A stretch of DNA of 24,443 nucleotides from Anaerolineales bacterium (GCA_028687395.1 JAQUAE010000001.1:1-24443); one strand, 5' to 3'; shown: positions 2,909 through 24,443, counted from the first letter of the stretch. Notes: a model not told the origin generated them from the letters alone. Program-made: numbers and translations.

Positions 2909-2919
2909 GGAGCATTCCT

Positions 2920-3669
2920 ATGTTGACCCAACCCTTACTGGAAAAACTATCCCAACTCAAGCTTTCCGCTTTCCGCTCCGCCTTCGAAGACCAGCTACAA
3001 AATCCCCAGTATGCGGAGCTGTCCTTCGAAGAGCGGCTCGGTTTACTGGTCGATATCGAGATCACCCGCAGAACCAACCACCGCTTGCACCACCGCATCC
3101 ACTCCGCCCGTTTCCCTCTCCAGGCCACCCTCGAAGACCTCGACCTGTCGGCGGGGCGCGGCATCAAACGAGCCCAGGTTCTCCAACTCGCCCAGGGAGA
3201 TTGGGTCCGCCGCCATCTTAATGTGTTGGTTCTGGGTGCCACGGGTACGGGCAAGACTTACTTATCTTGCGCACTTGGCCGGGCTGCCTGCGAAGCCGAA
3301 TTCAATGTGCGCTACCTACGCACTTCCCGCCTGCTGCAATCCCTCGAACTCGCTCAGGCCGATGGCTCCTATCCCCAACTGCTGCGTTCCCTGGCTCGCA
3401 CTCACTTACTCATCTTCGACGACTGGCTGCGTGACCCGCTCTCTCGCTCCCAGGCCAAAGACCGGCTCGAAATCCTCGACGACCGTTATGGCCGCACGGC
3501 TACCCTGGTCGCCACCCAGGTCCCGGTCAGCGAATGGCATGCCCGCATCCCCGACCCCACCCTCGCCGATTCGGTCCTCGACCGCCTCATTCACAACGCC
3601 TTCCGACTAAATTTATCAGGAGACTCTATGCGAAAAGTGCATTCCCCCTTGCTCAACAACGACAACTAG
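2920..3669 (+). CDS. istB: IS21-family AAA+ helper ATPase IstB
   Basis: 249 aa with Walker A GATGTGKT, Walker B LLIFDDW and ADSVLDRLIHNA. RBS GAGGAG upstream. Confidence 0.95.
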   Translation: MLTQPLLEKLSQLKLSAFRSAFEDQLQNPQYAELSFEERLGLLVDIEITRRTNHRLHHRIHSARFPLQATLEDLDLSAGRGIKRAQVLQLAQGDWVRRHLNVLVLGATGTGKTYLSCALGRAACEAEFNVRYLRTSRLLQSLELAQADGSYPQLLRSLARTHLLIFDDWLRDPLSRSQAKDRLEILDDRYGRTATLVATQVPVSEWHARIPDPTLADSVLDRLIHNAFRLNLSGDSMRKVHSPLLNNDN

Positions 3670-3709: not shown

Positions 3710-3800
3710 GATCGCCATGCTCTGCAACAGCTGATCGGCATGACCGGTCCGGGTGATCGCCATCACCCGGATTTACTGATCGATATCACCGGAATGCGCA
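3710..3800 (-). repeat. IS-B right end: four inverted copies of the end repeat (GATCGCCATG 3710, GATCGGCATG 3733, GATCGCCATC 3755, GATCGATATC 3778) plus terminal IR
   Basis: Reverse-complement matches to CATGCCGATC with 23/22/23-bp spacing, ending in ...GGAATGCGCA. Confidence 0.85.
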
Positions 3801-3859
3801 TTTTGCTTCCAAGCCGAATCCACGCCCGCCCGCCAGCAGGGTGAAGCAAACCGTTAGGC
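3801..3859 (+). other. attC site 1, right half only (cut by IS-B right end)
   Basis: CAAGCCGAATCCA is shared with attC2, followed by ...GCAAACC GTTAGGC (perfect R' GTTRRRY at 3853-3859). Confidence 0.75.
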
Positions 3860-3887
3860 GCTCTAAAATAAATCAGGAGATACAATC

Positions 3888-4610
3888 ATGGCAAAGCCTT
3901 GGATTTCTGGTCCAAAAGAACTTATTGATCATGCCAACGTACACCTTCAAGATGGGAATCCTTTTGACTTTCGTGTTGCCATGATAAGTATTGACAATGC
4001 CGTTGAATTAACCATTAGAACCTACCTTGGCTTACCGAGGCGTATTCGAGGATCTGGTGGCCCTTCAAGGAGAGAATTAGAAGGCGCCATTGGCTTTCCA
4101 GAGTTACTTGATCTTCTAGAAAAACATGGGGAAGATCGACTTTCGGGTATTGAACTTGGTGATATTGAGTGGTACCACCGCCTTCGGAACACCCTTTATC
4201 ATGATGGAAATGGTGTTACTGTTGATCCAGAGATGGTAGATGCCTACCACCAAATTGCACGCCTTCTTTTTCAAAACCTATTTGACACATGTATCGAGCA
4301 GCCTGACGAACTTCCCGCATCTACCTTGCTAGGTGAATTTATCATTAAGTGGGCAACTCTTGAGACACGCTTGAAAAACCTTGCGGCGAAGCATCTACCA
4401 AAACATGATCGTGGGTATCGATCCGTCATCAGCCTTTATGATGGACTAATTGCTAAAGGTATTGTTCCAACAAAGGATCGCGCAAAGCTTGAAGAACTTA
4501 CTCGCATTCGCAACTCTGTGGTTCATGCACCTGCGGTTTCAGAAGCTGATGAACTTCGCCATTATATTGAAATTCTTGATCTACTGATTGGGCAACTACC
4601 TGAAGAGTAG
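3888..4610 (+). CDS. Gene cassette protein with two predicted HEPN domains (putative RNase / defence effector)
   Basis: 240 aa, all-helical. Two RxxxxH motifs (RNTLYH and RNSVVH) are each preceded by a helix with a conserved-looking acidic residue (DNAVE; WATLE). RBS AGGAG upstream. Confidence 0.65.
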   Translation: MAKPWISGPKELIDHANVHLQDGNPFDFRVAMISIDNAVELTIRTYLGLPRRIRGSGGPSRRELEGAIGFPELLDLLEKHGEDRLSGIELGDIEWYHRLRNTLYHDGNGVTVDPEMVDAYHQIARLLFQNLFDTCIEQPDELPASTLLGEFIIKWATLETRLKNLAAKHLPKHDRGYRSVISLYDGLIAKGIVPTKDRAKLEELTRIRNSVVHAPAVSEADELRHYIEILDLLIGQLPEE

Positions 4611-4622
4611 CTGCAAAATCGC

Positions 4623-4752
4623 GCCTAACATAGAGTGCACTTGACTAGCGGGATTCTGCGGCGTTTTTAGGCTTTTTCTACGCCTAAACGGAATCCTGCT
4701 CACAAGCCGAATCCAAGTCTCGCACGCCGGAAGGTAACGCAAACCATTGGGC
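4623..4752 (+). other. attC site 2 (130 bp)
   Basis: R'' GCCTAAC (4623-4629) lies just after the cassette stop. It has a central hairpin TTTAGGC/GCCTAAA, GGATTC/GAATCC arms and GGTAACGCAAACC before a degenerate R' ATTGGGC (4746-4752). Confidence 0.8.
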
Positions 4753-4770
4753 AGCTTAAAGTGATACACA

Positions 4771-5343
4771 ATGAGCAGCTATAAATCAATCGTCCGCACT
4801 TATATCTCCCAAATCCGACCCCGTGCAAAAGCCGAGTTAGGTTGGTTTAGAGAGCAGCCCACACTCAATTCTGCAATAGGACTGGCATCATTGGCTATTA
4901 ATAGTCAAGGTAAACGGTATTCCCATCAGCGAAGACTCAAGAAAGCGAATTTGCAACGGGCTAAATTAACCCTACTGGCAAATTCACGAAACCTGAAAGA
5001 GTGTCGTGAATTTGAAGAGCTTTTTAAAGTTATCGAGATGTTGCTTGAACCAATAAGCGGCATTGGTGAGTTATATGTTTACGATACTGCCCTACGAATT
5101 GGGGCAAAGTTAGGTCTGTTACCTAAAAAGGTTTATCTTCATGCGGGCACAAGAGCTGGAGCAAAAGCCTTAGGTTTTGATGGCAAGGCCAGGGCGCTCG
5201 AAATCTCTGCCTTACCAAAAGAATTTCGCCAACTTGAACCTCATGAAATTGAAGATGTTCTGTGTATTTTCGAATCAGAACTAAACGATGAAAATTTCAG
5301 AATCTCCGATAAAGTCGGTTCCAAACCGAGTTGGTGCGATTAG
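4771..5343 (+). CDS. Gene cassette hypothetical protein with helix-hairpin-helix-like motif
   Basis: 190 aa, basic. PISGIGELYVYDTALRIG resembles the HhH (LPGIG) signature, followed by VYLHAG and EIEDVLC motifs. Function not recognised. Confidence 0.55.
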   Translation: MSSYKSIVRTYISQIRPRAKAELGWFREQPTLNSAIGLASLAINSQGKRYSHQRRLKKANLQRAKLTLLANSRNLKECREFEELFKVIEMLLEPISGIGELYVYDTALRIGAKLGLLPKKVYLHAGTRAGAKALGFDGKARALEISALPKEFRQLEPHEIEDVLCIFESELNDENFRISDKVGSKPSWCD

Positions 5344-5353
5344 GCAAAAAGCT

Positions 5354-5479
5354 GCTTAAAAGGCGTGCAGCAGACAAGCGGGTATGCCCTTGTCCCAACC
5401 GAGTCTGTCCCTTTGGTTTTTTCTACGCTTTGAGTTTTCTCTGCTACGTCCCACCTGCCGCTAACGGAAACCGTTGGCC
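5354..5479 (+). other. attC site 3 (126 bp, degenerate R'')
   Basis: GCTTAAA-AGGCGTGCAGCAGAC left arm parallels attC2 (GCCTAAC-ATAGAGTGCACTTGAC). The right arm is CTAACGGAAACC GTTGGCC (R' 5473-5479). Confidence 0.65.
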
Positions 5480-5583
5480 CTGGAAAACCAACAATTCTTT
5501 GCTGAAACCCTGAAACTCTTTGGTCCATAATTTCAATGAACTCATTCTGAAATTACTGCACGGTGGTCATAATAAGAGATACA

Positions 5584-5757
5584 TCATTCCATCCCTCCTG
5601 CTGTGGCCGCAATAAGCAGCGGGATGAAAATAAACTGTCCGCTTGGATCGGAATAAAGAATCGGGTTATTCAGAGCATAAAGGTAGGAGGAGTGAGGCGG
5701 GTAATGTCAGGAAACCTGGAAACGGATCGCGAGTCAGGAACCTTCGTTGAGAAGGAC
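5584..5757 (-). pseudogene. Rhs repeat-associated core fragment with start of a truncated C-terminal toxin region
   Basis: Minus strand reads RRFLTRDPFPGFLTLPASL, then a frameshift near 5686-5689, then YLYALNNPILYSDPSG-QFIFIPLLIAATAGGME*. This is the YxYxxNNPxxxxDPxG Rhs core terminus. It is not in the ORF track. Confidence 0.8.
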
Positions 5758-5859
5758 CTTTATGGCTCACCCGAGGATCCATCCATCCGGTAGATTGTTA
5801 CGCTTACTGACGATGCCATGACAGTGACAATTAACACTTAAAAAATTTCCTTATAAGTA

Positions 5860-6312
5860 TCATCGAAGCCGAGAAAGAAACTCAGTGAAAGATTCCGCTA
5901 TCTTATATATTCCATTAAGGGAATCTGGCTCATTATATGGATGTATTTCATGATCGATAAAAAATATATCATCAAAATTCTCCGCGGTGATTCCAATACA
6001 AATCAAATTACCGACACCATCATCTCCAATTGGTAAAAGTCCATTAGGTACACCATATCGCTCTTTACTAATATAACAGTCAATTGATAACCACCTTGGA
6101 CCACTGTGTAATCCATAAAATTGATATACACTACTTTCATATTTTTCTTCGCTGATCCAAAAATTATTTGGTTTTGGAGTTCCTCCATTGCACTGTTTCA
6201 AGAACTCACGGTAATCCTGGGGTAATGAAATACCAATTTGTTTTTCAAAGGCTTGGAGTCTTTCTTCACTAATAAGCCCATAGGGTCTCGCGTTTTCTAT
6301 TTCGATGGTCAT
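5860..6312 (-). CDS. SMI1/KNR4 (SUKH) family immunity protein
   Basis: ISEERLQAFEKQIGISLPQDYREFLKQCNGG and LPIGDDGVGNLICI...IFFIDHE motifs. ATG at 6312 chosen over the upstream alternative start. It lies directly downstream of a toxin fragment. Confidence 0.9.
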   Translation of the reverse strand: MTIEIENARPYGLISEERLQAFEKQIGISLPQDYREFLKQCNGGTPKPNNFWISEEKYESSVYQFYGLHSGPRWLSIDCYISKERYGVPNGLLPIGDDGVGNLICIGITAENFDDIFFIDHEIHPYNEPDSLNGIYKIAESFTEFLSRLR

Positions 6313-6361
6313 ATTTTTTCTCAATCGATATTCATTACGAAATGTTACAAATATTATTGAT

Positions 6362-6846
6362 TTAAGGAAATTTTCCGCTTCGTAACAATTGTCTCAGGAA
6401 AGCAAGTACCTGCCATTTATCAGCATAGGGATGTGCATCAATAAAGGTCTGCCAAGCATTATTATATTCCCATGACCAGACCTGGTGGTATCCTGGAGGC
6501 GTTCCTGCAACCCATCTACCATAATGTAGATCGTTTACATTTAGTCCTCTACCAGGTCCAGCGAACCAGTCTCTGAACTCCCATGGCAGATCGTGATGGG
6601 CTTGGGGATTGGACAATCCCACTGGTGGTTCGTTCATAGCGTCTCTTAAACCAGAAGGATTTGTTGGCCAGAAGGATTTGTTGGTGGGTCAATCGATTGA
6701 ATGCGAGATACCACAAGTCGCCTTATTCCATATCCTCCAGCTCCTGCTATTCCACCACTGACACCACCAACGATTATTGCTTGGAGCAAGTCCTTATTCC
6801 AATTCTGAAGTCCGATTTCGGGGGAAAGAACATTTATTATCTCAGC
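6362..6846 (-). pseudogene. Polymorphic-toxin C-terminal fragment (DUF2380-like putative nuclease), frameshifted and lacking its N-terminus
   Basis: QAHHDLPWEFRDWF...GRWV...HQVWSWEYNNAWQTF motif. Removing the 17-bp duplication at 6651-6684 extends the frame upstream through a Gly-rich hydrophobic segment (AIIVGGVSGGIAGAGGYG) to a stop at 6847-6849. Confidence 0.65.
6651..6684 (+). repeat. Perfect 17-bp tandem duplication (CCAGAAGGATTTGTTGG x2)
   Basis: Read directly: 6651-6667 equals 6668-6684. Confidence 0.95.
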
Positions 6847-7212
6847 TCAATGGAAGAGCGAAACGCCAACGTGCCGACAAGGCGTAGCGCCGCGCAACCC
6901 CGGCGCGCCCGTGGTGTTCCTACCCTAAAGGACTCATATGTGATAGCATATGGGTGAGGCCGCGCCTCTTTCCGGGCTCGCGCTGGGCACAGGCGCAGGC
7001 GCGTGAAGCGGTGCAGCCAGCAGCAGGGACTGGCTCGCTTACCCTAGCACGGCCAAATCTCTCACGCCGCGAGCCATCCATCAGCCTGGCGTCGCGTCCT
7101 GACTGGTAAACCCTTAGCGGTCCCTGAGGAATAGCGATAACCTGTTCGATTGGCTTGCCTCGATAGCTTGGCAGGCATACCACGGCGCACGAAGCCAGGA
7201 GGTCGACCTGGA

Positions 7213-12164: not shown

Positions 12165-14171
12165 GTGGTGAATACGGTGAGCAGATTCTTCTCCTTGCAG
12201 AGCGTACAAGGCCGCCTGGGCTTGCTCTTCCTGACCTTCTTCCTGTTGCTGTCCGTCTCGGTGGGGGCGACCTTTTTCGGCATCGATTCCCAGAAGCGCG
12301 ATGGTCTGGTGATCAACCTGGCGGGGCGGCAGCGCATGCTGGTGCAGTGGATGGCGCGCCTGGCGTTGGAAATTGGCAATGGCGGGGGACAGGAACAGGC
12401 AGATGACCTGCGGGCGGCCATGCGTACCTTCGAGGGGACGTTGACTGCGCTGCAGCATGGCGGTAACGCCCCCTATTCCGAGGAGAGCAGTGTGGAGGTC
12501 CCCGCGGCGCGCTCAGCGGAGATCCAGGCGCAACTGCACCTGGCGCAGGAGGCCTGGGAGGCGCTGCGAGATCCCCTGGAGAAGGTGGCCGCAGGGCAAA
12601 TCTCCGGCGCGGAGCTGGCGGAGGCCGTCACCGAAACGCAAAGGCTTTCCCAGGCGGTAGTCGCCCGCGCCGACGAAGCCGTACGGCTCTACGAGCAAGA
12701 ATCCGCCGAGGACATGGAGCAACTGCGCCTGATTCAGGCGGCCTTCTTTGCCAGCGCCTTGTTGCTGCTCGCCGCCGGCGCCTGGCTCACGCGCCAATCG
12801 GTGCTTGCCCCGCTCAAGGCGATCCAGGCTGGTGCCCAGCGGGTGGGCGCCGGCGACCTGGAGACGCCCCTGCAGGTGCGCAGCCCTGCCGAGTTCGCCG
12901 CCCTGGCGGCCACCTTCAACAGCATGCAGGCCCAGTTACATGCCTCCCGGGAAGCGATGACCTCCTGGGCGGAGGAGCTCGAAGGGCGCGTCGCCCAACG
13001 CACGCGCGAGTTGGAAGCCTTGTACGAGGTCAGCCGGGATATCTCCTCCCGCCTGGACGTACGCCACGTGTTGAACTCGGTGACCGAGAAGGCGCGCGAG
13101 CTGCTGCAGGCGGAGGTGGCTTCGCTGTGCCTGCTGGAGGATTCTACCGAAGTGCTGACCATCAGCTCCCACAGCGGGCCGCCGGACGCCGTGATGGGCA
13201 ACAGTTCGCTCGTGGAGGGTGGCATTGCCGGGCCGGTGCTATCCAGCACGGAGGCGGTGGCGTGTGGTGAGTACCAGTGCTCCGCGGCGTGTAGCATTCT
13301 CTCGTCACAATACCGGGCCAGCCACCTGGTGGCACCGCTCAGGGTGGGGTCGCGGGTGATCGGCGCCTTGTGCGTCGGCAGCCGCCAACCGGGGGCCTTT
13401 TCGGAAAAAGCCTGCCCATTGCTGGGGAAACTGGCCAACTCGGCAGCGATTGCCCTGGAGAACGCCCGCCTGTATGCCCAGGCCGAGCGCGTCGCTACCC
13501 TGGAGGAGCGCCAGCGCATCGCCGCCGATATGCACGATAGCCTGGGCCAAACCCTGAGCTACCTCAGCCTGAGCATGGACCAGGTGAGCGAATACCTCCG
13601 AGCGGGGGATGGGGCGCGTGCCCAGGAAAACCTGGAAGCCTCCCGCCAGGCGCTCAACCAGGCCAACCTCGAGGTGCGCCGCGCCATCTCTAGCCTGATG
13701 GAAGACCCACCCCTGCGCCGCAGCTTGCAGGAACAGCTCGCTGCCCTGGTAGACGAATGCACTGCCATGGAGGGACCCCAGGTTGCCTGGCGGGACGCGT
13801 TGGGCAAGGCGCTGCACCTGCCTCAGGACAAGGCGGAACAGGTGCTGCGCGTGGCGCGCGAAGCGGTGATCAACGCCCAGCGCCACGCCGGAGCGCAGCG
13901 GGTGCAGGTGGTCTTTCAGGAAAATGGCGGTGAATACCAGTTGAGCGTGCAGGACGATGGCTGCGGTTTCGATACAGCCATCTTGAAGAATAGACAGGGC
14001 AATCACTTTGGCCTGCGTATCATGCAAGCCCGAGCAGGTCTGCTCGGAGGCAATTGCAGCGTAGAGTCGGCGCCCGGCGAAGGGACGCGGGTGATGTTGC
14101 GCTGGCCCAAGCATAGGCAGCGCCCCGAAGCTGAAAGGCAGCATGAAACTTATGCGCATATTATTGGCTGA
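12165..14171 (+). CDS. narX: NarX/NarQ-like nitrate/nitrite sensor histidine kinase (PilJ/NarX sensor, HAMP, GAF, HisKA_3, HATPase)
   Basis: P-box-like INLAGRQRML between two TM helices, HAMP, GAF, H-box ERQRIAADMHDSLGQ, then NAQRHA, DDGCGF, HFGLRIM and GEGTRV. The GTG start could be 12165 or 12177. Confidence 0.85.
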   Translation: MVNTVSRFFSLQSVQGRLGLLFLTFFLLLSVSVGATFFGIDSQKRDGLVINLAGRQRMLVQWMARLALEIGNGGGQEQADDLRAAMRTFEGTLTALQHGGNAPYSEESSVEVPAARSAEIQAQLHLAQEAWEALRDPLEKVAAGQISGAELAEAVTETQRLSQAVVARADEAVRLYEQESAEDMEQLRLIQAAFFASALLLLAAGAWLTRQSVLAPLKAIQAGAQRVGAGDLETPLQVRSPAEFAALAATFNSMQAQLHASREAMTSWAEELEGRVAQRTRELEALYEVSRDISSRLDVRHVLNSVTEKARELLQAEVASLCLLEDSTEVLTISSHSGPPDAVMGNSSLVEGGIAGPVLSSTEAVACGEYQCSAACSILSSQYRASHLVAPLRVGSRVIGALCVGSRQPGAFSEKACPLLGKLANSAAIALENARLYAQAERVATLEERQRIAADMHDSLGQTLSYLSLSMDQVSEYLRAGDGARAQENLEASRQALNQANLEVRRAISSLMEDPPLRRSLQEQLAALVDECTAMEGPQVAWRDALGKALHLPQDKAEQVLRVAREAVINAQRHAGAQRVQVVFQENGGEYQLSVQDDGCGFDTAILKNRQGNHFGLRIMQARAGLLGGNCSVESAPGEGTRVMLRWPKHRQRPEAERQHETYAHIIG

Positions 14172-14796
14172 CGACCATGCCCTCTTCCGGGAAGGCCTGG
14201 CCGGCATCCTTGCCGCCCAGCCCGACATCGAAGTGGTTGGCGAAGCCAGCGACGGGCTGGAAGCGGTGGTGAAAGCCCTCGAGCTGAAACCCGACCTGGT
14301 CTTGATGGACATCCAGATGCCCGGCATCGACGGGATCGAAGCCACTCGCCAGATCAAGAAGGACCTCCCCCAGACGACGATCGTGATGTTGACCGTGCGC
14401 GATGACGAGCAGAAGCTCTTCGAAGCGATCAAGTGCGGTGCGCAGGGCTATTTATTGAAAAACATCCGCTCACGAGAGATGCTGGAGATGGTGCGCAGCG
14501 CGGCGCGCGGCGAGGCCGCCCTCTCGCCCGCCCTGGCCAGCCACGTCCTGGAGGAATTCCGCCGCCTCAGCCAGCAACTGCCTCCCGATGGCTTGGGAGA
14601 AGCCGACGCCCTCACCCAGCGCGAGCAGGAGGTGCTCGGCCACGTCGCCATGGGGGCGAGCGATAAAGAAATCGCCGCGGCGATGAGCCTGAGCCTGCAC
14701 ACCGTGAAGAGCCACATGCGCAACATCCTCTCCAAGCTGCAGGTGAACAACCGCCGTGCGGCCGCTCGCCTGGCCAAGCACAAGGGCCTGATCTAA
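14143..14796 (+). CDS. narL: NarL/LuxR-family response regulator
   Basis: ILLADDH, DLVLMDI (phospho-Asp), GYLLK and an LTQREQEVL...TVKSHMRNILSKL HTH. Overlaps the end of the kinase gene. Confidence 0.9.
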   Translation: MKLMRILLADDHALFREGLAGILAAQPDIEVVGEASDGLEAVVKALELKPDLVLMDIQMPGIDGIEATRQIKKDLPQTTIVMLTVRDDEQKLFEAIKCGAQGYLLKNIRSREMLEMVRSAARGEAALSPALASHVLEEFRRLSQQLPPDGLGEADALTQREQEVLGHVAMGASDKEIAAAMSLSLHTVKSHMRNILSKLQVNNRRAAARLAKHKGLI

Positions 14797-14934
14797 CGCA
14801 GGCGGGCGTCATCCTCATCCCGGGCGCCGGATAACCGCGTACGCTCGTCCAAGGTGGGGGAAACCAGGTGCGGCCGCCTCTCGCAGAAGAACTAATGCTT
14901 CGGCCCGAAAACTCTGCCAGCTTGTACTGCTTTT

Positions 14935-14958
14935 TTCATCCCTGAGATGCGGGGTGAA
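14935..14958. promoter_or_regulatory. Imperfect palindrome TTCATCCC-N8-GGGGTGAA, candidate activator site
   Basis: 7/8 inverted match, centred ~40 bp upstream of an extended -10. Confidence 0.35.
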
Positions 14959-14981
14959 CGATTTTCCCTGCGACGCCCCCA

Positions 14982-14990
14982 TGCTATGCT
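14982..14990 (+). promoter_or_regulatory. Candidate extended -10 (TGCTATGCT) for the respiratory operon
   Basis: TGn+TATGCT, followed by RBS GGAGG (15003-15007) and ATG 15012. Confidence 0.4.
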
Positions 14991-15011: not shown

Positions 15012-17015
15012 ATGGATGAGGCGCGCTACCCGGTAACCATTCCCGATCTCGACTTCTGGCGCAAGATGGTCAAGTGCCAGGCCGCCTGCCCGGTGTTGAC
15101 CGACGCCCGCGGCTACGTGACGGCCATCGGGCGCGGAGAGCTGGAACTGGGCTACGAAATCGCCCACGATCCCAACCCGCTCTCCACGGTGTGCGGGCGC
15201 ATCTGCGGTGCGCCGTGCGAGGTAGCCTGCCGCCGCCAAGAGGTCGGGCCGGATTATCAGTCGGTGGCCATCCGCCCGCTCAAGCGTGTGGTCACCGAGC
15301 GCTATGGCCCGGAGGCGCGCCTGCGCCTCCCCGGCGCAGGGCGGGGGAATGGCTCAGCCGCCGAGCGCCCGCGCGGCAAGCCCGGCGTGGATTTCTCCAC
15401 CGTGCGCTGGTCGCGGCGCAACCTGCAGGTGCTGGCGGCACAACCGGGGCGCAAGCGCGGCAGGGTGGCTATCATCGGCGCGGGTCCCTCCAGCCTGGCT
15501 GCCGCCAATGACCTGGCCTTGCTGGGGCACAGCGTGGTCATCTACGAAGCCGGCCCGAAACCGGGCGGGATGATGCGCTATGGCGTTCCGGTCTATCGCA
15601 TCGACTGGGAAGCCATGGATAAGGAAATCGAGTCCATCCTCGAGCGGGGGGTTGCCATCCACTACAACACGCCGATCGGGGAAGCCCTCAGCCTGGCCGA
15701 CTTGCGCCGGGATTACGACGCCGTCTACCTGGGCATCGGCCTGATGCAGGGCAAGCGGCTGAACATCGAAGGCGTCGATCTGGATGGTGTGGTGCCCGCT
15801 GTCGACCTGCTGCTCAATTACAACCTGGGCTACCGCCTGGAGCTGGGCAAGCGCGTCATCGTAGTGGGCGGGGGCGACGTGGCGATGGACGCCGCCCGCA
15901 CCGCGCTACGGTTGGGCGTCGCCACCGCCGAGCAGCAGGCTGCCCTGGAGAACACCGCGGCGCGCCTGGACGACGAAGCGGATAGCATGCGCACGGCGTT
16001 GGACGTGGCCCGCACCGCCTTGCGCCTGGGCGTCGCCGATGTGCGCGTCATCGCCCTGGAATCCTGGGAGGAGCTGCCCGCCTCCGAATTCGAAGTGGTC
16101 GAAGCGCAGGAGGAGGGCATCCACATCTTCCCGCGGCGCGGCCCGGTGCGCATTCTGGGCGAGGCTGGGCGTGTGCGTGGCCTGGAGGTCATCGACGTGG
16201 CCTCCGTCTTCGATGAAGCCGGGCGCTTCAACCCCCGCTTCGTCCCCGGCACCAACCAGGTGTGGGAGTGCGAGAGCGTCATCCTGGCCATCGGGCAGGC
16301 CGCCGACCCGACCCCCTTGAAGGGCGCCGAGGACGTCCGGATTTCCGGGCGCGGCCTTGTCGAAGTGGATCCAGAAACCGGGCAAACTTCCGCGGTGGAC
16401 GTCTTCGCCGGCGGGGACGTGGCCTATGGCCCACGCCTGATCATCCACGCAGTGCGCGATGGGCAGGCGGCTGCCCTGGGCATCGACGCCGCCATCCAGG
16501 GGCGAAAGCTGAAGACCCAGGTAGTCAGCCGCTGGAAGGAGCTCCCTCACCACCAGATGCCCGAAGACTGGATCAAGTACCAGCGCACGCGCGTCCCGGC
16601 CCTGCCGGTCGAGCGGCGCACCGGCATCTCGACCGTCGAGGTGGGTTACGCGGTGGAAGAAGCGCGCATTCAGGGCTTGCGCTGCCTGGAATGCAGCCTG
16701 AACACCATATTCGACGGCAGCAAGTGCATCCTGTGCAACGGCTGCGTGGACGTCTGCCCGTGGGACTGCCTGAAGATCGTGCGCGTCGATGACCTGCAGG
16801 GCGAGGCGAGCCTGCCTGAGCTGGTCGAAGCGGCGCTTGGCGCCCCAGTCGAGAGCTATCGTGAGGAAACGGCCCCCAGCGTGGCCGCCATGATCAAGGA
16901 CGACCTGGCCTGCACGCGCTGCGCCCTGTGCGTCCGGCGCTGCCCCACCGGGGCGATCACCATGGAATCCTTCCGCTTCGACGAAATCCTGACTTACGCG
17001 GCGCCGCAGCCATGA
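15012..17015 (+). CDS. GltD/NfnB-like FAD- and Fe-S-containing pyridine-nucleotide oxidoreductase with C-terminal 2x[4Fe-4S] ferredoxin domain
   Basis: CQAACP...[13 protein letters not shown] (Fer4_20-type), FAD motif IIGAGP, dinucleotide motif [15 protein letters not shown], then [16 protein letters not shown] and [12 protein letters not shown]. Confidence 0.9.
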
Positions 17016-17053
17016 GGCACACCGCTCATCCCAACCCTGCAGAAGGAGATGGC

Positions 17054-17779
17054 ATGCCGACCTGGATTGAATCGATCACACGCTCGCGCCTGTGGCGTTC
17101 CTTCTTCCGTCACGGCTGGCCGGACAACCCCCTGGACCGCTCACTGGTGATGACCAGCAACATTTTCTTTCACCTGCACCCGGTCAAGATGAACCGCAAG
17201 AGCCTGCGAGTGACCTATTCCTTTGGCCTGGGCGTGATGGTGGTTATCGTCTTCGGCATACTCTCGCTGACCGGGCTACTGTTGATGTTCTACTACACGC
17301 CGGCTATCGAGCACGCCTACAGCAACGTCGTGCGCTTGCAGACCCAGGTCCCCTTTGGCCAGTTGCTGCGCAACCTGCACCGCTGGGGGGCGCACCTGAT
17401 GGTGATCCTGGTGGTGCTGCACATGGCGCGCGTCTTCTACACCGGCGCCTACAAGCCGCCCCGCGAGTTCAACTGGGTGGTGGGGGTGGTGCTGCTCCTG
17501 CTCACCCTGGGGGCGAGCTTCACCGGTTACCTGCTGCCCTGGGATCAACTGGCCTACTGGGCGATCACCGTGGGCACCAGCGTGGCCGGCTACGCTCCCC
17601 TGGTCGGCAGCCAGGCGCGCCTGTTCTTGCTCGGCGGGCCGGAGATCGGCCAGGAAGCCCTGACGCGCTTCTACGCGCTGCACGTTATGCTCATCCCGGC
17701 AGCCATCGTGCTGGTCACCAGCCTGCACCTGTGGCGCGTGCGCAAAGACGGCGGGTTGGCGGCCAACGACGCTGATTAG
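17054..17779 (+). CDS. petB: Cytochrome b6-type (N-terminal, 4-TM) subunit of a Rieske/cytochrome b complex
   Basis: Haem ligands in [23 protein letters not shown] and RFYALH...SLHLWRVR, plus [18 protein letters not shown] 17054 follows RBS AAGGAG (alternative start 17012). Confidence 0.92.
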
Positions 17780-17815
17780 CCGCGCAGCAATGAGAGGTTC
17801 AAGCAAGGAGAAATC

Positions 17816-18583
17816 ATGGCGCAAGTCCCAAACAAGGTAGCCTTTCCTAAGGATGGTGCAAAGACCTACAGCCTGGTGGAGCTGGTGAAGGGCGCCCCGA
17901 CCGTGATGGTCGAGAAAGGTCCGGACAACACGGTGTTCTCGTTTCCGGTGGTGGCGCTGCTCGAGCTGCTGCTCGTGTTGGGGGTATCGGCGCTGCTGCT
18001 GCTCATGTCGCTGGCGCGCAACGCTCCTTTAGAAGAGTTTGCCAACCCCACCCTGACCACCGACCCGGCCAAGGCGCCCTGGTACTTCATGGGCTTGCAG
18101 GAGATGCTCGAGCACGGGCACCCGACCTTGATGGCAGTGGTCTTGCCCACCGTGATGGTGCTGTTCGTCATGGCCATCCCCTATCTGGATAACGACCGGA
18201 GAGGATCGGGTAGGTGGTTCACCTCGCCGCGCGGCCGCAAGCTCACCTGGAACACCACGCTGTACGCCCTGCTGGCCATGCCGGCGTTCATCCTGCTGGA
18301 CAATGCCTTCCCACCCCGCGAGCTGCTGCGCGGCATGGCCCCCGATTTCATTGCCCAGTTTGCCATCCCGGCAGTGGTGATGGGGCTGATCGTGGCTGCG
18401 CCGGTGCTGGCCTTGCGCCGCCAGCGCCCCACCATGCGCGAGGTGATGCTGGTGCTCTTCACCATGCTTTTCGTCTCAGCCATCGTATTCACCGTGACGG
18501 GTTTCTTCTTCCGCGGGCCGGGCTTCCGCCTGTACTGGCCGTGGGACATGCCCGGCGGGTACAGCCCATTCGATAACCTGTAG
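17816..18583 (+). CDS. petD: Rieske/cyt b complex subunit IV (cytochrome b C-terminal part) with extra TM helices
   Basis: ANPTLTTDPAKAPWYFMGLQE (PEWY-equivalent Qo motif) and IPYLD, located between petB and the Rieske gene. Confidence 0.85.
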   Translation: MAQVPNKVAFPKDGAKTYSLVELVKGAPTVMVEKGPDNTVFSFPVVALLELLLVLGVSALLLLMSLARNAPLEEFANPTLTTDPAKAPWYFMGLQEMLEHGHPTLMAVVLPTVMVLFVMAIPYLDNDRRGSGRWFTSPRGRKLTWNTTLYALLAMPAFILLDNAFPPRELLRGMAPDFIAQFAIPAVVMGLIVAAPVLALRRQRPTMREVMLVLFTMLFVSAIVFTVTGFFFRGPGFRLYWPWDMPGGYSPFDNL

Positions 18584-18595
18584 GGAGGCGGCGCG

Positions 18596-19090
18596 ATGCA
18601 GTCGGCAGAACACACCATCAAACCCAACGCCATCCCCCGGCGCTCGTTCCTCAACCTGGCCTTCTTCAGCAGCCTGGCACTGCTGCTGGCGCAGAGCCTG
18701 GCGGCGCTGGTGAAGTTCCTGAAGCCGGTTCCCAGCGGAGGATTCGGCGGCGAGGTCTACGCCGGCAGGGTGGACGAATTCACCGTCGGCAGCGTGAACC
18801 GCGTCCTGGCGGGGCGCTTCTACCTGGTGCGCACTGAAGAGGGCTTGCTGGCGCTCTGGCAGCGCTGTACGCACCTGGGGTGCTCGGTGCCCTGGGTGGA
18901 CGCCGAGGCCCAGTTCCACTGCCCCTGCCATGGCTCGCTGTTCAACAATCTGGGCGAGGTGACTGGCGGACCGGCGCCGCGGCCTTTGGATATCTTCCCC
19001 ATCAGTATCCGCAATGGCGAGGTGTGGGTGGATACCGGCAAGCCCATCCAGCGCTCGCGCTTCGACGCCGGCCAGGTCACCCGCGCCTGA
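18596..19090 (+). CDS. petC: Rieske [2Fe-2S] protein with twin-arginine anchor
   Basis: PRRSFL Tat motif plus TM helix, CTHLGC and CPCHGS boxes, GPAPRPL. Confidence 0.95.
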   Translation: MQSAEHTIKPNAIPRRSFLNLAFFSSLALLLAQSLAALVKFLKPVPSGGFGGEVYAGRVDEFTVGSVNRVLAGRFYLVRTEEGLLALWQRCTHLGCSVPWVDAEAQFHCPCHGSLFNNLGEVTGGPAPRPLDIFPISIRNGEVWVDTGKPIQRSRFDAGQVTRA

Positions 19091-19119
19091 GTGGCTGGGG
19101 AGCTCACGGAGGTCAGACG

Positions 19120-20283
19120 ATGTCGACCGGCAACACGACTGCCATGCGAGAGGATTATTCCAGCTATATCAAGATTGGTCTGGCGCTTGCCTTGGCCTTG
19201 CTCCTGGGCGTGAGCCTGTATTGGTGGAGCGACGCGGCCCGCTTGCAGGCCGTCGCCGAGCGCCTGCACGAGGAGCGCGTGCAGCGCGGCAGCCAGGTTT
19301 ACGCTGCCCAGTGCGCCGCCTGCCATGGGGCGCAAGGCGAGGGCGGCGTGGGCTGGCGGCTCAACGACCGCGCCTTGCTGAAGAACACTCAGGACGAGGT
19401 GTTCTACTCGGTGATTCGCTCCGGAGTACCCAACACACAGATGCCTGCCTGGAGTGTGGCTTACGGCGGGCCCCTGACCGACGAGGACATCCGCGACGTG
19501 GTGGCCTTCCTGCGCTCCTGGGAGGCGACCGCCCCGGAGGTGCAGCCCACGCAGCGGGTGGCTGATCCGCAGCAGGGGGCGGTGCTCTTCGCCAGCACCT
19601 GCGCGATCTGTCACGGCAAGGACGGGCGCGGCGGGGAGGGGGATATCCCGGCCATCAACAATCCCCAACGCCTGAGAGCGTTGGATGACGCCTGGTACCG
19701 CAACGTGATTGCATATGGCCGCCCGGCCAAGGGCATGCCTACCTGGGGTACAGTGCTCTCCCCGGAACAGATGGACGACCTGGTGGCCCTGATCGGCGCC
19801 TGGCGCGCCGGCCAGGCGGTCGTGCCGGCTTTCTCGGGGCAGGAGCTGCTCGACCAGGCGCTTTACGCCATCTCGCAGGATGACCTGGAGAGCGCCGCCA
19901 GCAGCGTGAGTGAAGCCCGGCGGGTGGTTACCGGAGCGGGGAACGAGATGCTCGCCAACGCGCAAGCCCAATTGCGCGCCGGGGATGCCCTTGGCGCCCA
20001 AAAGACGCTGGAACTCTTGAGGGAGAGCTGGCCGCTGGGTGATCCAGCCAACGGCGCCCTCTCTTACAGCGCCAATTGCGCGGTGTGCCACGGCCCACAA
20101 GGGGGAGGCGGCGTGGGTGTGGCGCTGGTGAACAACGCCTTCGTCCAGTCCCAGAACAACGCCGTGCTGGTGCAATTCCTGCTGGAGGGACGGGCGGGCA
20201 CCGCCATGGCTGGATTTGCCGGTCGCCTGCCGGAGAGCGAGCTTGCCGACATCGTCGCCTTCTTGCGCTTGTGGCAACCGTAG
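19120..20283 (+). CDS. Membrane-anchored tri-haem c-type cytochrome
   Basis: N-terminal TM helix and three CxxCH motifs (CAACH, CAICH, CAVCH), each followed by a distal Met (QMP, GMP, AMA). ATG 19120 follows GGAGG; the 18880 start in the ORF track overlaps the Rieske gene. Confidence 0.9.
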   Translation: MSTGNTTAMREDYSSYIKIGLALALALLLGVSLYWWSDAARLQAVAERLHEERVQRGSQVYAAQCAACHGAQGEGGVGWRLNDRALLKNTQDEVFYSVIRSGVPNTQMPAWSVAYGGPLTDEDIRDVVAFLRSWEATAPEVQPTQRVADPQQGAVLFASTCAICHGKDGRGGEGDIPAINNPQRLRALDDAWYRNVIAYGRPAKGMPTWGTVLSPEQMDDLVALIGAWRAGQAVVPAFSGQELLDQALYAISQDDLESAASSVSEARRVVTGAGNEMLANAQAQLRAGDALGAQKTLELLRESWPLGDPANGALSYSANCAVCHGPQGGGGVGVALVNNAFVQSQNNAVLVQFLLEGRAGTAMAGFAGRLPESELADIVAFLRLWQP

Positions 20284-20301
20284 ACCGGCGCCATTTTTGA
20301 G

Positions 20302-20646
20302 ATGAAGACGCGCGTGCTCCTGCTCTATACCCGGCACCTCCTGGGCGAAAGCCTGGAAAAGCTGCTGCGCGACCAAAGGGATATCCACTTGCTCGGTCCG
20401 TGGGTGCTCGACGCGCAAGCCTTCTCGCGGGTGACTTCCCAGCAGCCCGACCTGGTGCTGATCGCTGAAGACGAGGCTGTGCCCGAGCAGGTGGCCAGGC
20501 TCACTGCGCAAATCCTGGAGGCGTACCCCAACCTGCCGGTCATCCACAGCACGCTCACCCGCAACGTGGTGCGCATCTACACCTCGCAGGAGCTGCCGGC
20601 CAGGAGCGCCGACCTGATTGAAGCGATTCGCGCCCTGACGGCATAA
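20302..20646 (+). CDS. Stand-alone receiver-like (pseudo-receiver) protein
   Basis: 114 aa resembling the NarL N-terminus (RVLLLYTRHLLGESL, PDLVLIAED, LPVI), but lacking the acidic pocket and the phospho-Asp. Confidence 0.6.
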   Translation: MKTRVLLLYTRHLLGESLEKLLRDQRDIHLLGPWVLDAQAFSRVTSQQPDLVLIAEDEAVPEQVARLTAQILEAYPNLPVIHSTLTRNVVRIYTSQELPARSADLIEAIRALTA

Positions 20647-20664
20647 ACCAATCAGGAGCTGTCC

Positions 20665-21540
20665 ATGAATTCCCGACGCGAAATTATTCCCATCACCTAC
20701 AGGCTGGCGCCCGCCTTACTACTGGCAGGCGCGTTGCTGTTGGCCAGCGCCTACCTGGCCTCCGCCGGGCCGCTGGCGCAAACCGCCGACGAGGGGCGGG
20801 CGATCTTCGAGCAGAAGTGCCAGGCGTGCCACACCATCGGTGGGGGGAGGCTGGTCGGCCCCGACCTGCAGAGCGTGACGACCCGCCGCGAGCGGGCCTG
20901 GTTGCTCAGCTTCATCGGCACACCGGACCGCATGCTGGCGCAGGGAGACCCGATTGCCACCCAGTTGCTGGCGGAGAACAATAACGTCCCCATGCCCAAT
21001 CTGGGGCTTACCCAGAGCGAGGTCGAATCGCTGCTGGCGTATCTGGAAAACCCGGCTGGGGCGGGGCAAGCCACTACCCAGCCGCAAGCGCCCACCCAGG
21101 TTTTACCCCCCGGCAATTACGCCCGCGGCTGGAAGCTCTTCACCGGCGAGGTGGCGCTGGTTGGCGGCGGCCCGCCGTGCATGGGCTGCCACAACGTGGG
21201 CGGCATCGGGCGTTACGGCGGCGGCAGCCTGGGGCCCGACCTGACCCAGGTCTATTCCCGCCTGGGCGAGCCCGGATTGACCAGCGCGCTGGCCAATTTC
21301 CCCTTCCCGACCATGGCAGCCGTCTTCACCGGCAAAGCCCTCGACCCGCAGGAGCAGGCGGACCTGCTGGTCTTCTTTGCCCAGGTGGACGCCCAGGGAC
21401 AGGCTATGCCGCCGGCCGTTTTCGACCGCTATTTTTGGTTCTGGGGGCTGACCGGCATGGCCTTGCTCTTCGCCGGTATGGTGATTTTCTGGCCCAGGCA
21501 GCGCCTGAGCATCTCTGAAGCCCTACGGAGGAAAAGATGA
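20665..21540 (+). CDS. Di-haem cytochrome c with signal peptide and C-terminal membrane anchor (NarC-like)
   Basis: Sec-type signal, CQACH...VGPDL...VPMP and CMGCH...LGPDL...PTM domains, C-terminal TM. Its TGA overlaps the narG ATG (ATGA). Confidence 0.8.
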
Positions 21541-24443
21541 AAAACTGGATCAAGGAGATCGAATCCCCCGGCGAGCGCAAGTGGGAGGAATTCTACCGCA
21601 ACCGCTTTCAACACGACCGGCGGGTGCGCACCACTCATGGCGTCAATTGCACCGGGAGCTGTTCCTGGGAAGTGTTCGTCAAGGACGGCATCGTCACCTG
21701 GGAGCTGCAGGCCACCGATTATCCCCGCCTGGAAGAAGGGCTGCCCCCCTACGAGCCGCGCGGCTGCCAGCGGGGGATTAGCTTCTCCTGGTACCTGTAC
21801 AGTCCGATTCGGGTGAAATACCCCTACGCCCGGGGGGTGCTGATCGACCTGTGGCGGGCGGCCAAGGCGCGCTATAGCGATCCGGTTGCCGCCTGGGCAG
21901 CCCTGGTGAGCGACCAGAATTCCCGGGGAAGCTACCAGCAGGCACGCGGCAAGGGCGGCTTCCGCCGCCTGGGCTGGGACGAAGCCCTGGAGATCATCGC
22001 TGCCTCGGTAGTGTACACCATTAAACAATACGGCCCCGACCGGGTGGCGGGCTTCTCGCCCATCCCGGCCATGTCCCAAATCAGCTACGCTTCGGGCAGC
22101 CGCTTCCTCTCCCTGTTGGGCGGCGTGGTGATGAGCTTCTATGACTGGTATTGCGACCTGCCGCCTGCCAGCCCGGAGATCTGGGGGGAGCAAACCGACG
22201 TGCACGAATCGGCCGACTGGTACAACGCCCGCTTCATCGCCGTGGTGGGCTCCAACCTTAATATGACCCGCACGCCGGACACGCACTTCATCTCCGAGGT
22301 GCGCCACGCCGGGGCGAAGCTGACCGTCTTCTCACCCGATTTTTCCCAGGTGGCCAAGTACGCCGATTACTGGCTGCCGGTGCACGCCGGGCAGGACGCC
22401 GCCTTCTGGATGGCGGTCAACCACGTCATCCTGAGCGAGTATTACCAGCACCGCCAGGTGCCCTACTTCCAGGAATACCTGAAGCGCTTCACCGACATGC
22501 CCTTCCTGGTGCAGGTGGATGAAAAGCGTCACCGCCCGGGGCGTTATCTGCGCGCCTCTGCTCTAGAAGCTTATCGCCAGGTGGAGAACGGGGAGTGGAA
22601 ATTTCTGGTCTGGGACCAGGCCAGCAACCGGCCGCGCCTGCCCCAGGGGACGGTGGGTTACCGCTGGGCGGAGGTGGAGAAGGGGCGCTGGAACCTGGAG
22701 ATGAAGGATGGCCTCTCCGGGGAGGCGCTCTGCCCCGAGCTGAGCTTCCTGGAAGAGCACGACGCCCTGCTCGAGACGCACTTCGACGATTTCTCCGGGG
22801 GAGGCGCCCTCAAGCGCAGCCTCCCGGTGCGTTACCTGGAAACACGCGCCGGTCGCGTGGCGGTGACCACTGTCTTCGACCTGATCATGGCCCAGTTTGG
22901 GGTCGGGCGCGGCCTGCCCGGCGAGTATCCCCAAAGTTACGACGACGACCAGCCCTACACCCCCGCCTGGCAGGAGCGTTACACCGGTATTCACCGCCAG
23001 ACCTGCGTGCGCTTTGCCCGCGAGTGGGCGGAGAACGCCGAGAAGACGCACGGCAAGAACCTGATCATCATCGGCGCCGGGGCGAATCACTGGTACCACA
23101 ACAACCTGCTCTACCGCTCGGCCATCGTGGCCCTGATGCTCACCGGCAGTGTGGGGGTGAATGGCGGCGGGCTGGCGCATTACGTTGGGCAGGAGAAATT
23201 GGTCAACCAGGCCTCCTGGTCGGCGATTGCCTTCGCCTCGGATTGGAACCAGGTCCCTCGCCAGCAGAACACGCCCTCATTCCATTATGTCCACTCCGAC
23301 CAGTGGCGCTACGAGCGGGGTTACTCGGCTTACGACCGCTTGCCCGGCGACAGCGACGGGGAGGAGAGGGCGCGCTTCGGCAAGCACACCATCGACATGC
23401 AGGTGCAGGCGGTGCGCCGTGGCTGGCTGCCTTTCTATCCCCAATTCAACCGCAGCTCATTGACCCTGGCGCAGGAGGCCCTCGCCAGGGGTGCCGAGAG
23501 CGACGCAGAGATCATCGCCTACGTAGTCGAGCAGTTGCGCTCTGGCAAGCTCAAGTTCGCCGTCGAAGATCCGGACTCGCCCGAGAACTGGCCGCGCGTC
23601 TGGTTCATCTGGCGCGGCAACGCCATCGGCACCAGCGCCAAGGGGCACGAGTACTTCCTCAAGCATTACCTGGGCACGCACACCAACGCCATAGCTCCGG
23701 AGCAGGCTTTGGGCTTCACCGAGGAGGTGGCTTACCACAAGAACGCCCCCACCGGCAAGTTCGACCTGGTGGTGGACCTGAACTTCCGCATGGATACCTC
23801 CGCCCTGTATTCGGACATCGTCCTGCCTGCGGCGACCTGGTACGAGAAGGACGACCTGAACACCACTGACCTGCACTCCTTCATCAATCCCATGCAGGCC
23901 GCCGTGCCTCCGGCCTGGGAATCGAAGTGCGATTGGGATATCTACAAGGCGCTGGCGCGCAAGGTGAGCGAGCTCGCCGGCCAGCACTTCCCCGAGCCGG
24001 TCAAGGACGTGATCATGCTGCCTCTGCAGCACGACACGCCGGACGAGCTGGCGCAGAGCGAGGTGCGCGATTGGATCAAGGGGGAGGTCGAGCCTCTACC
24101 CGGCAAAAGCATGCCCAAGTTCCAGGTGGTGACCCGCGATTTCGCCGCCACCTACGAGCGCATGGTCTCGCTGGGGCGCAACGTGGAAGCCAACGGCGTG
24201 GCTGCTCACGGGCTGCGCATTCCCGTCGCCGACGAATACCAGGCATTGGTGCGCCAGCAACCGCGCCGCCTGAACGGCGAGCTCTATCCCTCGCTGGAGG
24301 ACAGCGTGGAGGTGTGCGAGGCCATCCTGCGTCTGGACCCCGCCTCGAATGGGGAGCTGGCTTACCGCGCCTTCCACGCCGAGGAGCACAAGACCGGGCT
24401 CGCCCTCAGCGACCTCTCCGAGGGGACGCGCGCCGTGCGCTAT
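21537..24443 (+). CDS. narG: Respiratory nitrate reductase alpha subunit NarG (3' end outside window)
   Basis: I translated 969 codons without a stop. Motifs: FS0 [12 protein letters not shown]...PRGCQRG, Mo-ligand [49 protein letters not shown]. No Tat signal. Absent from the ORF track because it lacks a stop codon. Confidence 0.95.

Follow-up and report, generated by a model that had tools for sequence, protein, structure and literature searches.

We analyzed a 24,443-bp stretch of DNA, referred to below as the window, which is the entire contig C230 of a metagenome-assembled genome (MAG) of an Anaerolineales bacterium (GCA_028687395.1; 2.2 Mb in 394 contigs, completeness 86%, contamination 4.6%). 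From position 15012 to the contig end, the window carries eight plus-strand genes that join a flavoprotein-bearing Rieske/cytochrome b module to a nitrate reductase (nar) locus. The first five encode an iron-sulfur (FeS) flavoprotein (15012..17015), a b6-type cytochrome b (17054..17779), an extended subunit IV (17816..18583), a Rieske [2Fe-2S] protein (18596..19090) and a trihaem cytochrome c (19117..20283); we refer to these as the module. They are followed by orf114 (20302..20646), the gene for the dihaem cytochrome c NarC (20665..21540) and narG (21537..24443), which is cut by the contig end. The gaps between successive genes are 38 (or -4), 36, 12, 26, 18, 18 and -4 nt, the last being the overlap of narC with narG. 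No intergenic terminator-like site was found across the eight genes, terminator-like sites overall being at chance level. All gene identities assigned in a preliminary description of this DNA were borne out by Pfam, NCBIfam and motif checks.

The final 323 nt of the window overlap the end of contig C127 with 98.8% identity, and C127 supplies the downstream genes that the preliminary description had proposed to retrieve: the remainder of narG is followed by narH, narJ, narI and a gene for a NarK-family transporter. NarH scores 638 bits (cut-off 524) and NarI, which is intact, matches TIGR00351 with 119 bits (cut-off 105.5); the NarJ match is weak (27.7 bits, cut-off 59), and the transporter matches the NarK subfamily. 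A 98%-identical MAG carries the histidine kinase, response regulator, flavoprotein, cytochrome b, subunit IV, Rieske, trihaem cytochrome c, orf114, NarC, NarG and NarH genes and the start of the NarJ gene on one 105-kb contig, so that the arrangement is not an assembly artefact. NarG is complete in that MAG and comprises 1206 amino acids (aa). Near-identical sequence is present in landfill, soil, sediment and groundwater metagenomes, as found by a run search. By the sources of its nearest proteins and loci, the window belongs to the class Anaerolineae of the Chloroflexota.

For comparison, 63 loci encoding relatives of the flavoprotein were assembled, one genome per species, all from Chloroflexota and mostly from Anaerolineae. 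The set was found with peptide patterns derived from the flavoprotein of the window, and close relatives are over-represented in it. The module is kept in 63 of 63 loci: as far as each contig extends, genes for cytochrome b, subunit IV and Rieske protein come after that for the flavoprotein, joined in nearly all cases by the trihaem cytochrome gene. About 22 loci are linked to nar genes (15 with nar downstream, three with narGHJI upstream and four truncated loci with the histidine kinase and response regulator genes), a proportion of one third that holds for this set only and not for the whole class. The preliminary description had tied the module to nitrate. The module is not specific to nitrate, as at least 21 of the 63 loci place it beside a haem-copper oxidase, with SCO1, CtaA/CtaB, CoxIIa, COX2, COX1 and a monohaem cytochrome c encoded directly upstream. 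No locus has both nar and oxidase genes beside the module (0 of 63). Judged by its neighbors, the module behaves as a quinol:cytochrome c oxidoreductase encoded beside a terminal reductase, for either oxygen or nitrate. The oxidase-linked loci often also encode a fusion protein of 670-774 aa in which cytochrome b is joined to a 2x[4Fe-4S] ferredoxin and an FlpD domain (L072, 6645-8969; L044, 15366-18849); it is a second unusual cytochrome b-FeS protein of these clusters. Some hold a 479-aa Pyr_redox_2 protein as well.

The flavoprotein gene of the window is preceded by genes for a NarX/NarQ-like sensor histidine kinase (12165..14171, plus strand; PilJ-type sensor, HAMP, GAF, HisKA_3 and HATPase domains in Pfam) and a NarL-like response regulator (14143..14796, plus strand; Pfam receiver and GerE/LuxR helix-turn-helix domains). 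The best NCBIfam matches are NarQ (191 bits) and NarX (129 bits) for the kinase and NarL (169.7 bits) for the regulator, all under cut-off, and the kinase gene is kept upstream of nar in relatives. Alignment of 18 spacers between the response regulator gene and the next gene revealed a conserved nar-type regulatory block of ~100 nt (14887..14990, plus strand). Its elements in the window, all read on the plus strand, are the 14-bp near-palindrome AAGAACTAATGCTT (14887-14900), CTGCTTTTTTCATCCCT (14927-14943), GAACGATTT (14956-14964) and the -10-like hexamer TATGCT (14985-14990). Across the 18 loci, the block comprises the palindrome with the consensus AAGAACTAGTTCTT, a hairpin or T-rich block CTCTTTTTTCATTCCT, a GA.(C/G)GATT box and a -10-like TA..CT.

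In 11 of the 15 loci with nar downstream and in all four truncated loci with the two regulators, this palindrome is found 114-171 nt before the flavoprotein gene; two more loci have degenerate copies. The upstream regions of the flavoprotein genes lack it in all 26 loci without nar and in all three loci with nar upstream. Where the module is missing, the palindrome precedes orf114 in nine of the nine loci that have orf114. With up to two mismatches allowed, it has four sites in the 2.2-Mb MAG, and the window holds a single copy (14887-14900). Given this single copy and the gap of only 18 nt between the trihaem cytochrome gene and orf114, the nar genes appear to depend on the region before the flavoprotein gene. 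Most likely, the module and the nar genes are both transcribed from the nar promoter. Nitrate co-regulation of the module and the nar genes through this putative element is well supported by the alignments, and the shared cis-element is the strongest support for one nitrate-induced operon. The eight genes had been described as one apparent operon, with which the tight gaps, the lack of a terminator and the one conserved nar-type element before the flavoprotein gene all agree. Canonical NarL heptamers (TACYYMT) are not enriched in the spacers between the response regulator and flavoprotein genes; the conserved element is a different palindrome. An Rfam scan of the leader gave no match.

The leader contains a second inverted repeat, ATCCCTC...GAGGGAT or ATCGCTC...GA.CGAT, which is common to the window, L008-L068 and L074-L093; its central base differs among loci and is altered on both sides. 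The leader could combine an operator with a terminator or antiterminator. In L018, a second copy of the palindrome occurs at 15520, with a 330-nt spacer before orf114, and L038 has a 550-nt spacer between the trihaem cytochrome gene and orf114; these two loci may be intermediate states with two promoters.

To view the two units across the class, an even sample of 300 Anaerolineae genomes was surveyed. A NarC homologue was found in 26 of the 300 genomes and in 20 of 176 genera, counting the genus of the window's own MAG (G000); NarC is widespread in Anaerolineae, beyond Thermus. For the module, subunit IV replaced the flavoprotein as the class-wide query, as the counts obtained with the flavoprotein were unreliable, with GltD-like paralogues giving 20-50 candidates per genome of which only four were scored. 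With orthologues defined by at least 50% identity, 16 genomes of the sample encode subunit IV. In several of 20 NarC loci from this sample, those in which upstream genes were detected, the order is histidine kinase-response regulator-orf114-narC-narGHJI-narK without the module; L074, one of these loci, is from a genome in the same order as the window. The lineage of the window has the module placed between the response regulator gene with its cis-element and orf114. The cluster is, judged by these gene orders, a mosaic of two separately occurring units, regulators-element-orf114-narCGHJIK and the five-gene module. Conservation of the gene order, which the preliminary description had proposed to survey, was found in part: module and nar genes are linked in about 22 of the 63 loci, but each is often unlinked from the other in relatives.

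On a NarG tree, the 15 loci with nar downstream of the module and the three with nar upstream form one group (SH-aLRT 91), within which the nar-upstream order is nested. The order narCGHJI-MFS-MFS-FmdE-module is, on this tree, a derived rearrangement of the order in the window, and the linkage of module and nar genes was kept through the change. The flavoproteins of some linked lineages are 62-73% identical to that of the window. The NarG of locus L065 belongs to a separate, well-supported clade, and we regard L065 as an independent association of module and nar genes for this reason; the linkage consequently arose at least twice. Thermus thermophilus NarG (L071, pTTJL1801) clusters with the NarC-type NarGs of Anaerolineae, suggesting that the narC-nar unit moved laterally between the two phyla concerned. 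One further locus, L021, has narG directly after the trihaem cytochrome gene, with no NarC or narH gene there and NarC on another contig; it was treated as a rearranged or misassembled exception.

L065 also differs in its cytochromes. Downstream of its Rieske gene come one gene for a trihaem protein of 399 aa and, next, narGHJI, with no separate trihaem cytochrome gene. The N-terminal transmembrane (TM) helix and first haem domain of this protein align with the trihaem cytochrome of the module, and the stretch from residue 143 to residue 386 matches NarC (39% identity, E 4e-52). The fusion points to a putative electron wire from Rieske protein to cytochrome c to NarC to Nar.

The proteins of the nar unit are readily classified. 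NarG is represented in the window by its N-terminal 969 aa and scores 1209.8 bits with TIGR01580 (cut-off 1084.15) despite being cut by the contig end. Its N-terminus, MKNWIKEIE...HGVNCTGSC, contains the FS0 motif HxxxCxxxC and has no RR motif or twin-arginine translocation (Tat) signal. The NarG score, the FS0 motif without Tat signal, and the narH, narJ, narI and NarK-family genes downstream all identify a cytoplasm-facing NarGHI. NarC contains CxxCH motifs at residues 52 and 172, and hydrophobic segments at residues 7-32 (signal or anchor) and 257-275 (C-terminal TM helix). The proposal that it is of the Thermus type is upheld both by its homology to NarC of T. thermophilus (residues 19-257 of 262 aligned, with 32% identity and E 5e-26) and by the position of its gene directly 5' of narG, as in Thermus. 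The product of orf114 has no Pfam match; its AlphaFold model, built from 20 homologues, has a receiver-like fold (pLDDT 89), for which the best structural matches are receiver domains of the NarL/LuxR family (TM-score about 0.6, weak E-values). We classify it as a single-domain pseudo-receiver, which lacks the acidic residue pair behind strand 1. We assign orf114 to the nar unit because it precedes narC in loci without the Rieske/cytochrome b module.

The flavoprotein (667 aa) is soluble, with no TM segment found in a TM scan, and combines Fer4_20 and Pyr_redox_2 domains with two CxxCxxCxxxCP motifs. Its layout is NfnB- and GltD-like: an N-terminal 2x[4Fe-4S] domain of the GltD/DPD type leads into Rossmann folds for FAD and NAD(P)H, and a ferredoxin domain with 2x[4Fe-4S] forms the C-terminal part. 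The closest solved relatives are NADPH-linked FeS flavoproteins, namely StnC/NfnA-type chains, NfnB and GltD. An ESM Atlas search with the flavoprotein returned generic clusters of identical architecture from other phyla and carried no partner information. A single run of complex prediction for the flavoprotein with cytochrome b gave a score of 0.05, which counts neither for nor against binding. The flavoprotein also contains an internal duplication (window 15888-16067, residues about 293-352), in which the helix D(A/V)ARTALRLG occurs twice after the NADPH-site motif GGGDVAMD. The duplicated D.ARTALRLG helices are split by an acidic linker of ~25 aa, and the duplication is kept in the inspected members of an alignment of 57 flavoprotein sequences.

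The remaining products of the module form a split, b6f-like set. Cytochrome b is of the four-helix b6 type (PF00033, 163.5 bits; 282 bits with NF040969 ExtP, just under cut-off) and has four haem-ligand histidines, paired in helices B and D. Translation of its gene probably begins with the ATG at 17054, the start assigned in the near-identical MAG, rather than with an alternative ATG at 17012 that overlaps the flavoprotein stop codon. Subunit IV (255 aa; weak PF00032 and ExtQ matches) carries the Qo-site motif APWY, a variant of the PEWY type, and has four hydrophobic segments above threshold in a hydropathy scan and a fifth visible by eye. The Rieske protein (PF00355) has a TM anchor, the boxes CTHLGC and CPCHGS, and an RR Tat motif, RRSFL. 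Its nearest chains in the PDB are b6f PetC and the Rieske entries 9rk4 and 9rk3, which we take to be the anammox Rieske proteins of PMC12954380. The trihaem cytochrome c is anchored by an N-terminal TM helix and consists of three class-I domains (PF13442 x3) with three CxxCH motifs. The four-helix cytochrome b with its four histidines, the separate subunit IV, and the Rieske boxes with the Tat motif are all as expected of a split b6f-like complex, except that the haem cn cysteine is absent: the CxGG of cytochrome b is replaced by YS.GLG, and this serine is kept in at least 90% of the 63 sequences.

Cytochrome b further carries an N-terminal motif on the n-side (window 17084-17140) that is at least 90% conserved across the 63 homologues. 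As far as its sequence was printed, the N-terminus of the QcrB-type cytochrome b of the same genome (C161) lacks this motif, and we know of no standard b6 sequence that has it. The motif could be a flavoprotein docking site or the site of an extra haem; an extra haem at such a site has been modeled for anammox complexes (PMC12954380).

Two further Rieske/cytochrome b loci are present in the MAG, both on the minus strand. One (C161, 1489-3935) is of the QcrABC type (Rieske protein, b6 and a subunit IV-dihaem cytochrome c fusion) and lies beside sdhCDAB; the other (C164, 810-4637) encodes a cytochrome c-cytochrome b fusion, subunit IV, a Rieske protein and a 636-aa open reading frame, and adjoins its own pair of response regulator and histidine kinase genes. 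A role of the five-gene module as the housekeeping complex III was considered and rejected on account of these two loci. At the other end of the window, IS21 istA/istB (1364-3669) are followed by a low-GC block (43-45%; 3800-7000) upstream of LarA/ECF genes.

We interpret the cluster as a composite nitrate-regulated respiratory operon in which Nar is fed serially via the Rieske/cytochrome b complex, the trihaem cytochrome c and NarC, a reading to which we give a probability of roughly 0.45. One unit would be the Anaerolineae form of a Thermus-type nar locus, with a cytoplasm-facing enzyme and an extra periplasmic dihaem cytochrome c, and the other a five-gene quinol:cytochrome c oxidoreductase that carries an NAD(P)-binding FeS flavoprotein on the cytoplasmic side. 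When nitrate is present, menaquinol would be oxidized by the Rieske/cytochrome b complex in a Q-cycle; the Rieske protein would reduce the trihaem cytochrome, and this cytochrome would reduce NarC, whose electrons would cross the membrane via the haems of NarI to reach NarH and NarG. This serial route would work alongside direct quinol oxidation by NarI. As a Q-cycle moves 2 charges per 2 electrons and the transmembrane return of the electrons another 2, the serial route would yield about 4 charges per 2 electrons versus 2. Through the flavoprotein, NAD(P)(H) would be linked to cytochrome b on its n-side, and electrons might flow either way: from NAD(P)H into the b haems or the Qn site, or out to NAD(P)+ as proposed for anammox bacteria. 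In Thermus, NarC is bound to NarI and moves electrons between Nar and its partners in the periplasm (PMC7694296).

The more specific claim, that NarGHI is fed from outside by a dedicated Rieske/cytochrome b complex via the trihaem cytochrome c, NarC and NarI while the flavoprotein couples the same complex to NAD(P)(H), seems to us rather unlikely in its full form. If true, outside feeding of NarGHI would roughly double the charge per nitrate and contradict the rule that bacterial Nar bypasses bc complexes, and an anammox-style mechanism would become testable in heterotrophs with O2 or nitrate as the sink.

Several observations weigh against serial feeding. Since NarI is intact, Nar could take electrons directly from quinol, as all characterised bacterial Nar enzymes do, bypassing Rieske/cytochrome b (PMC3509893), and the known direction in Thermus is out of Nar via NarC, not in. 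In the class sample, NarC and subunit IV share a contig in G000 alone and lie on different contigs in two genomes; in the 20 NarC loci drawn from it, NarC is always encoded directly 5' of narG and the module is absent from all 20. All but one of the module-nar linkages fall into one NarG clade and represent about two independent events, not eighteen. The fused N-terminal domain of the L065 protein is a generic class-I cytochrome c (27% identity). The 11 listed runs with the window sequence were all classed as DNA and include no RNA run, and the MAG is incomplete, with a contamination of 4.6%.

The two units might instead be co-regulated but electrically separate, with NarI taking its electrons from menaquinol, NarC acting as an assembly partner or outlet, and the Rieske/cytochrome b complex serving other cytochrome-c-dependent reductases. 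This arrangement is possible, if doubtful. NarI, NarJ and NarK are all present, most of the class has NarC-Nar with no module beside it, and the same module adjoins haem-copper oxidases elsewhere; candidate recipients exist in the MAG, which encodes a multihaem cytochrome (at least six CxxCH) and an A-family oxidase at other loci. The Thermus NarC data fit as well (PMC7694296). However, NirK, NirS and NosZ were not found in the MAG (86% complete), which leaves no evident partner for an outlet from NarC to Nir/Nor like that of Thermus; for general use, the QcrABC-type complex by sdh and the third Rieske/cytochrome b locus are already there; and the L065 fusion and the persistent adjacency of the two units argue for a direct link.

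The preliminary description had put forward bifurcation, in which quinol electrons are split between the Rieske protein, cytochrome c and NarC toward nitrate on one side and the b haems and an FeS chain toward NAD(P)+ on the other. We consider this improbable. Such a split is thermodynamically allowed (menaquinone -74 mV, nitrate +420 mV, NAD(P) -320 mV), the module stands beside reductases for high-potential sinks, O2 or nitrate, and the nearest solved relatives of the flavoprotein are NADPH-linked and partly bifurcating (NfnB, StnC-type, GltD). Yet Anaerolineae are generally heterotrophs, with no obvious need to obtain NAD(P)H from quinol, and input from NAD(P)H to the Qn site, parallel to FNR bound to b6f, fits equally well. 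The long subunit IV and the proximity of the Rieske protein to the presumed anammox entries recall anammox complexes (PMC12954380), but haem cN, which these complexes retain, is lost here with the change from Cys to Ser, and even in anammox bacteria the mechanism is still a proposal.

That the adjacency is meaningless, a single insertion inherited by descent, would account for 18 of 19 linked loci lying in one NarG clade; we hold this very improbable, as the linkage persists at 62-73% flavoprotein identity and through a change of gene order, arose again in L065, and was accompanied by the module taking over the nar cis-element and losing any intervening spacer. A Nitrobacter/Nitrolancea-type nitrite oxidoreductase running in reverse, with electrons passing out through NarI and NarC to cytochrome c and a share of these driven back through Rieske/cytochrome b to NAD(P)+, could draw on the A-family oxidase in the MAG and on the very similar cluster with a NarC homologue in Nitrobacter (PMC7694296), but is scarcely credible given the NarX/L-like regulators, the NarK-family transporter, the wide occurrence of the NarC-Nar locus in Anaerolineae and a NarG clade that includes the enzyme of nitrate-respiring Thermus.

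Behind a single nitrate-type control region, this conserved operon unites a bc-type complex and its cytochrome c with cytoplasmic NarGHI and with NarC as a putative entry port; it offers a concrete, testable alternative to direct quinol feeding, one that would have a higher energy yield. In Anaerolineae, Rieske/cytochrome b complexes with a flavoprotein, a matter of debate in anammox bacteria, are common and are paired with either oxygen or nitrate reductases. Some Anaerolineae are cultivable, and the role of the NAD(P) subunit might become approachable if a cultured strain with the module is found. Landfill, soil, sediment and groundwater, whose metagenomes contain the sequence, are settings where nitrate turnover may be influenced by the trait.

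The individual parts of the cluster are known, and we found no published description of their combination in one cytoplasmic narCGHJI operon. A literature search returned no paper on a Rieske/cytochrome b module within such an operon, in keeping with the earlier view that the three-part combination had not been described. The nar unit resembles that of T. thermophilus, where a gene for a membrane-anchored dihaem NarC likewise lies 5' of a Tat-less narG, followed by narH, narJ, narI and narK, and where a dedicated NAD(P)H-linked flavoenzyme is encoded next to nar: the Thermus narCGHJIK operon is part of the NCE element and neighbors the Nrc NADH dehydrogenase (PMC7694296). Unlike the window, the Thermus cluster has no Rieske/cytochrome b genes, and complex III is repressed there and replaced by NarC (PMC7694296). 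The Thermus partner is the succinate-dehydrogenase-like NrcDEFN; the Thermus regulators are DnrST and DrpAB, with no orf114, in contrast to the NarX/L-like pair and orf114 of the window.

The module, in turn, resembles the anammox complexes of Kuenenia (Kuste4569-4574 and Kustd1480-1485) in its split b6-type cytochrome b, long subunit IV, b6f-like Rieske protein and NAD(P)-binding FeS flavoprotein (PMC12954380, PMC5600118), a likeness judged from descriptions and not from the sequences of the Kuenenia flavoprotein or cytochrome b. As in the anammox type, the gene for the NAD(P)-binding flavoprotein lies directly 5' of the cytochrome b gene in the window and related loci. The pairing of an NAD(P) oxidoreductase with Rieske/cytochrome b, which had been noted as an anammox trait, is indeed known there but is not restricted to it: Dibrova et al. 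reported cytochrome b genes near an NAD(P) oxidoreductase gene "in many other cases" (PMC5600118). The anammox cytochrome is hexa- or octahaem, whereas that of the window is a trihaem protein of class-I domains; haem cN is kept in anammox bacteria, whereas its cysteine is lost here; and the anammox partner is an HAO-like protein, whereas the module of Anaerolineae is paired with an oxidase or nitrate reductase.

The third comparison is with the haloarchaeal narB, narC, narG, narH cluster, in which Rieske/cytochrome b genes likewise accompany narGH and a route from Rieske/cytochrome b to Nar has been proposed (PMC3509893). Haloarchaeal Nar is exported by the Tat pathway, faces outward and has no NarI, whereas NarG of the window is Tat-less and accompanied by NarI and NarK. 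The haloarchaeal "NarC" is a cytochrome b in a cluster with no flavoprotein, whereas NarC of the window is a Thermus-type cytochrome c.

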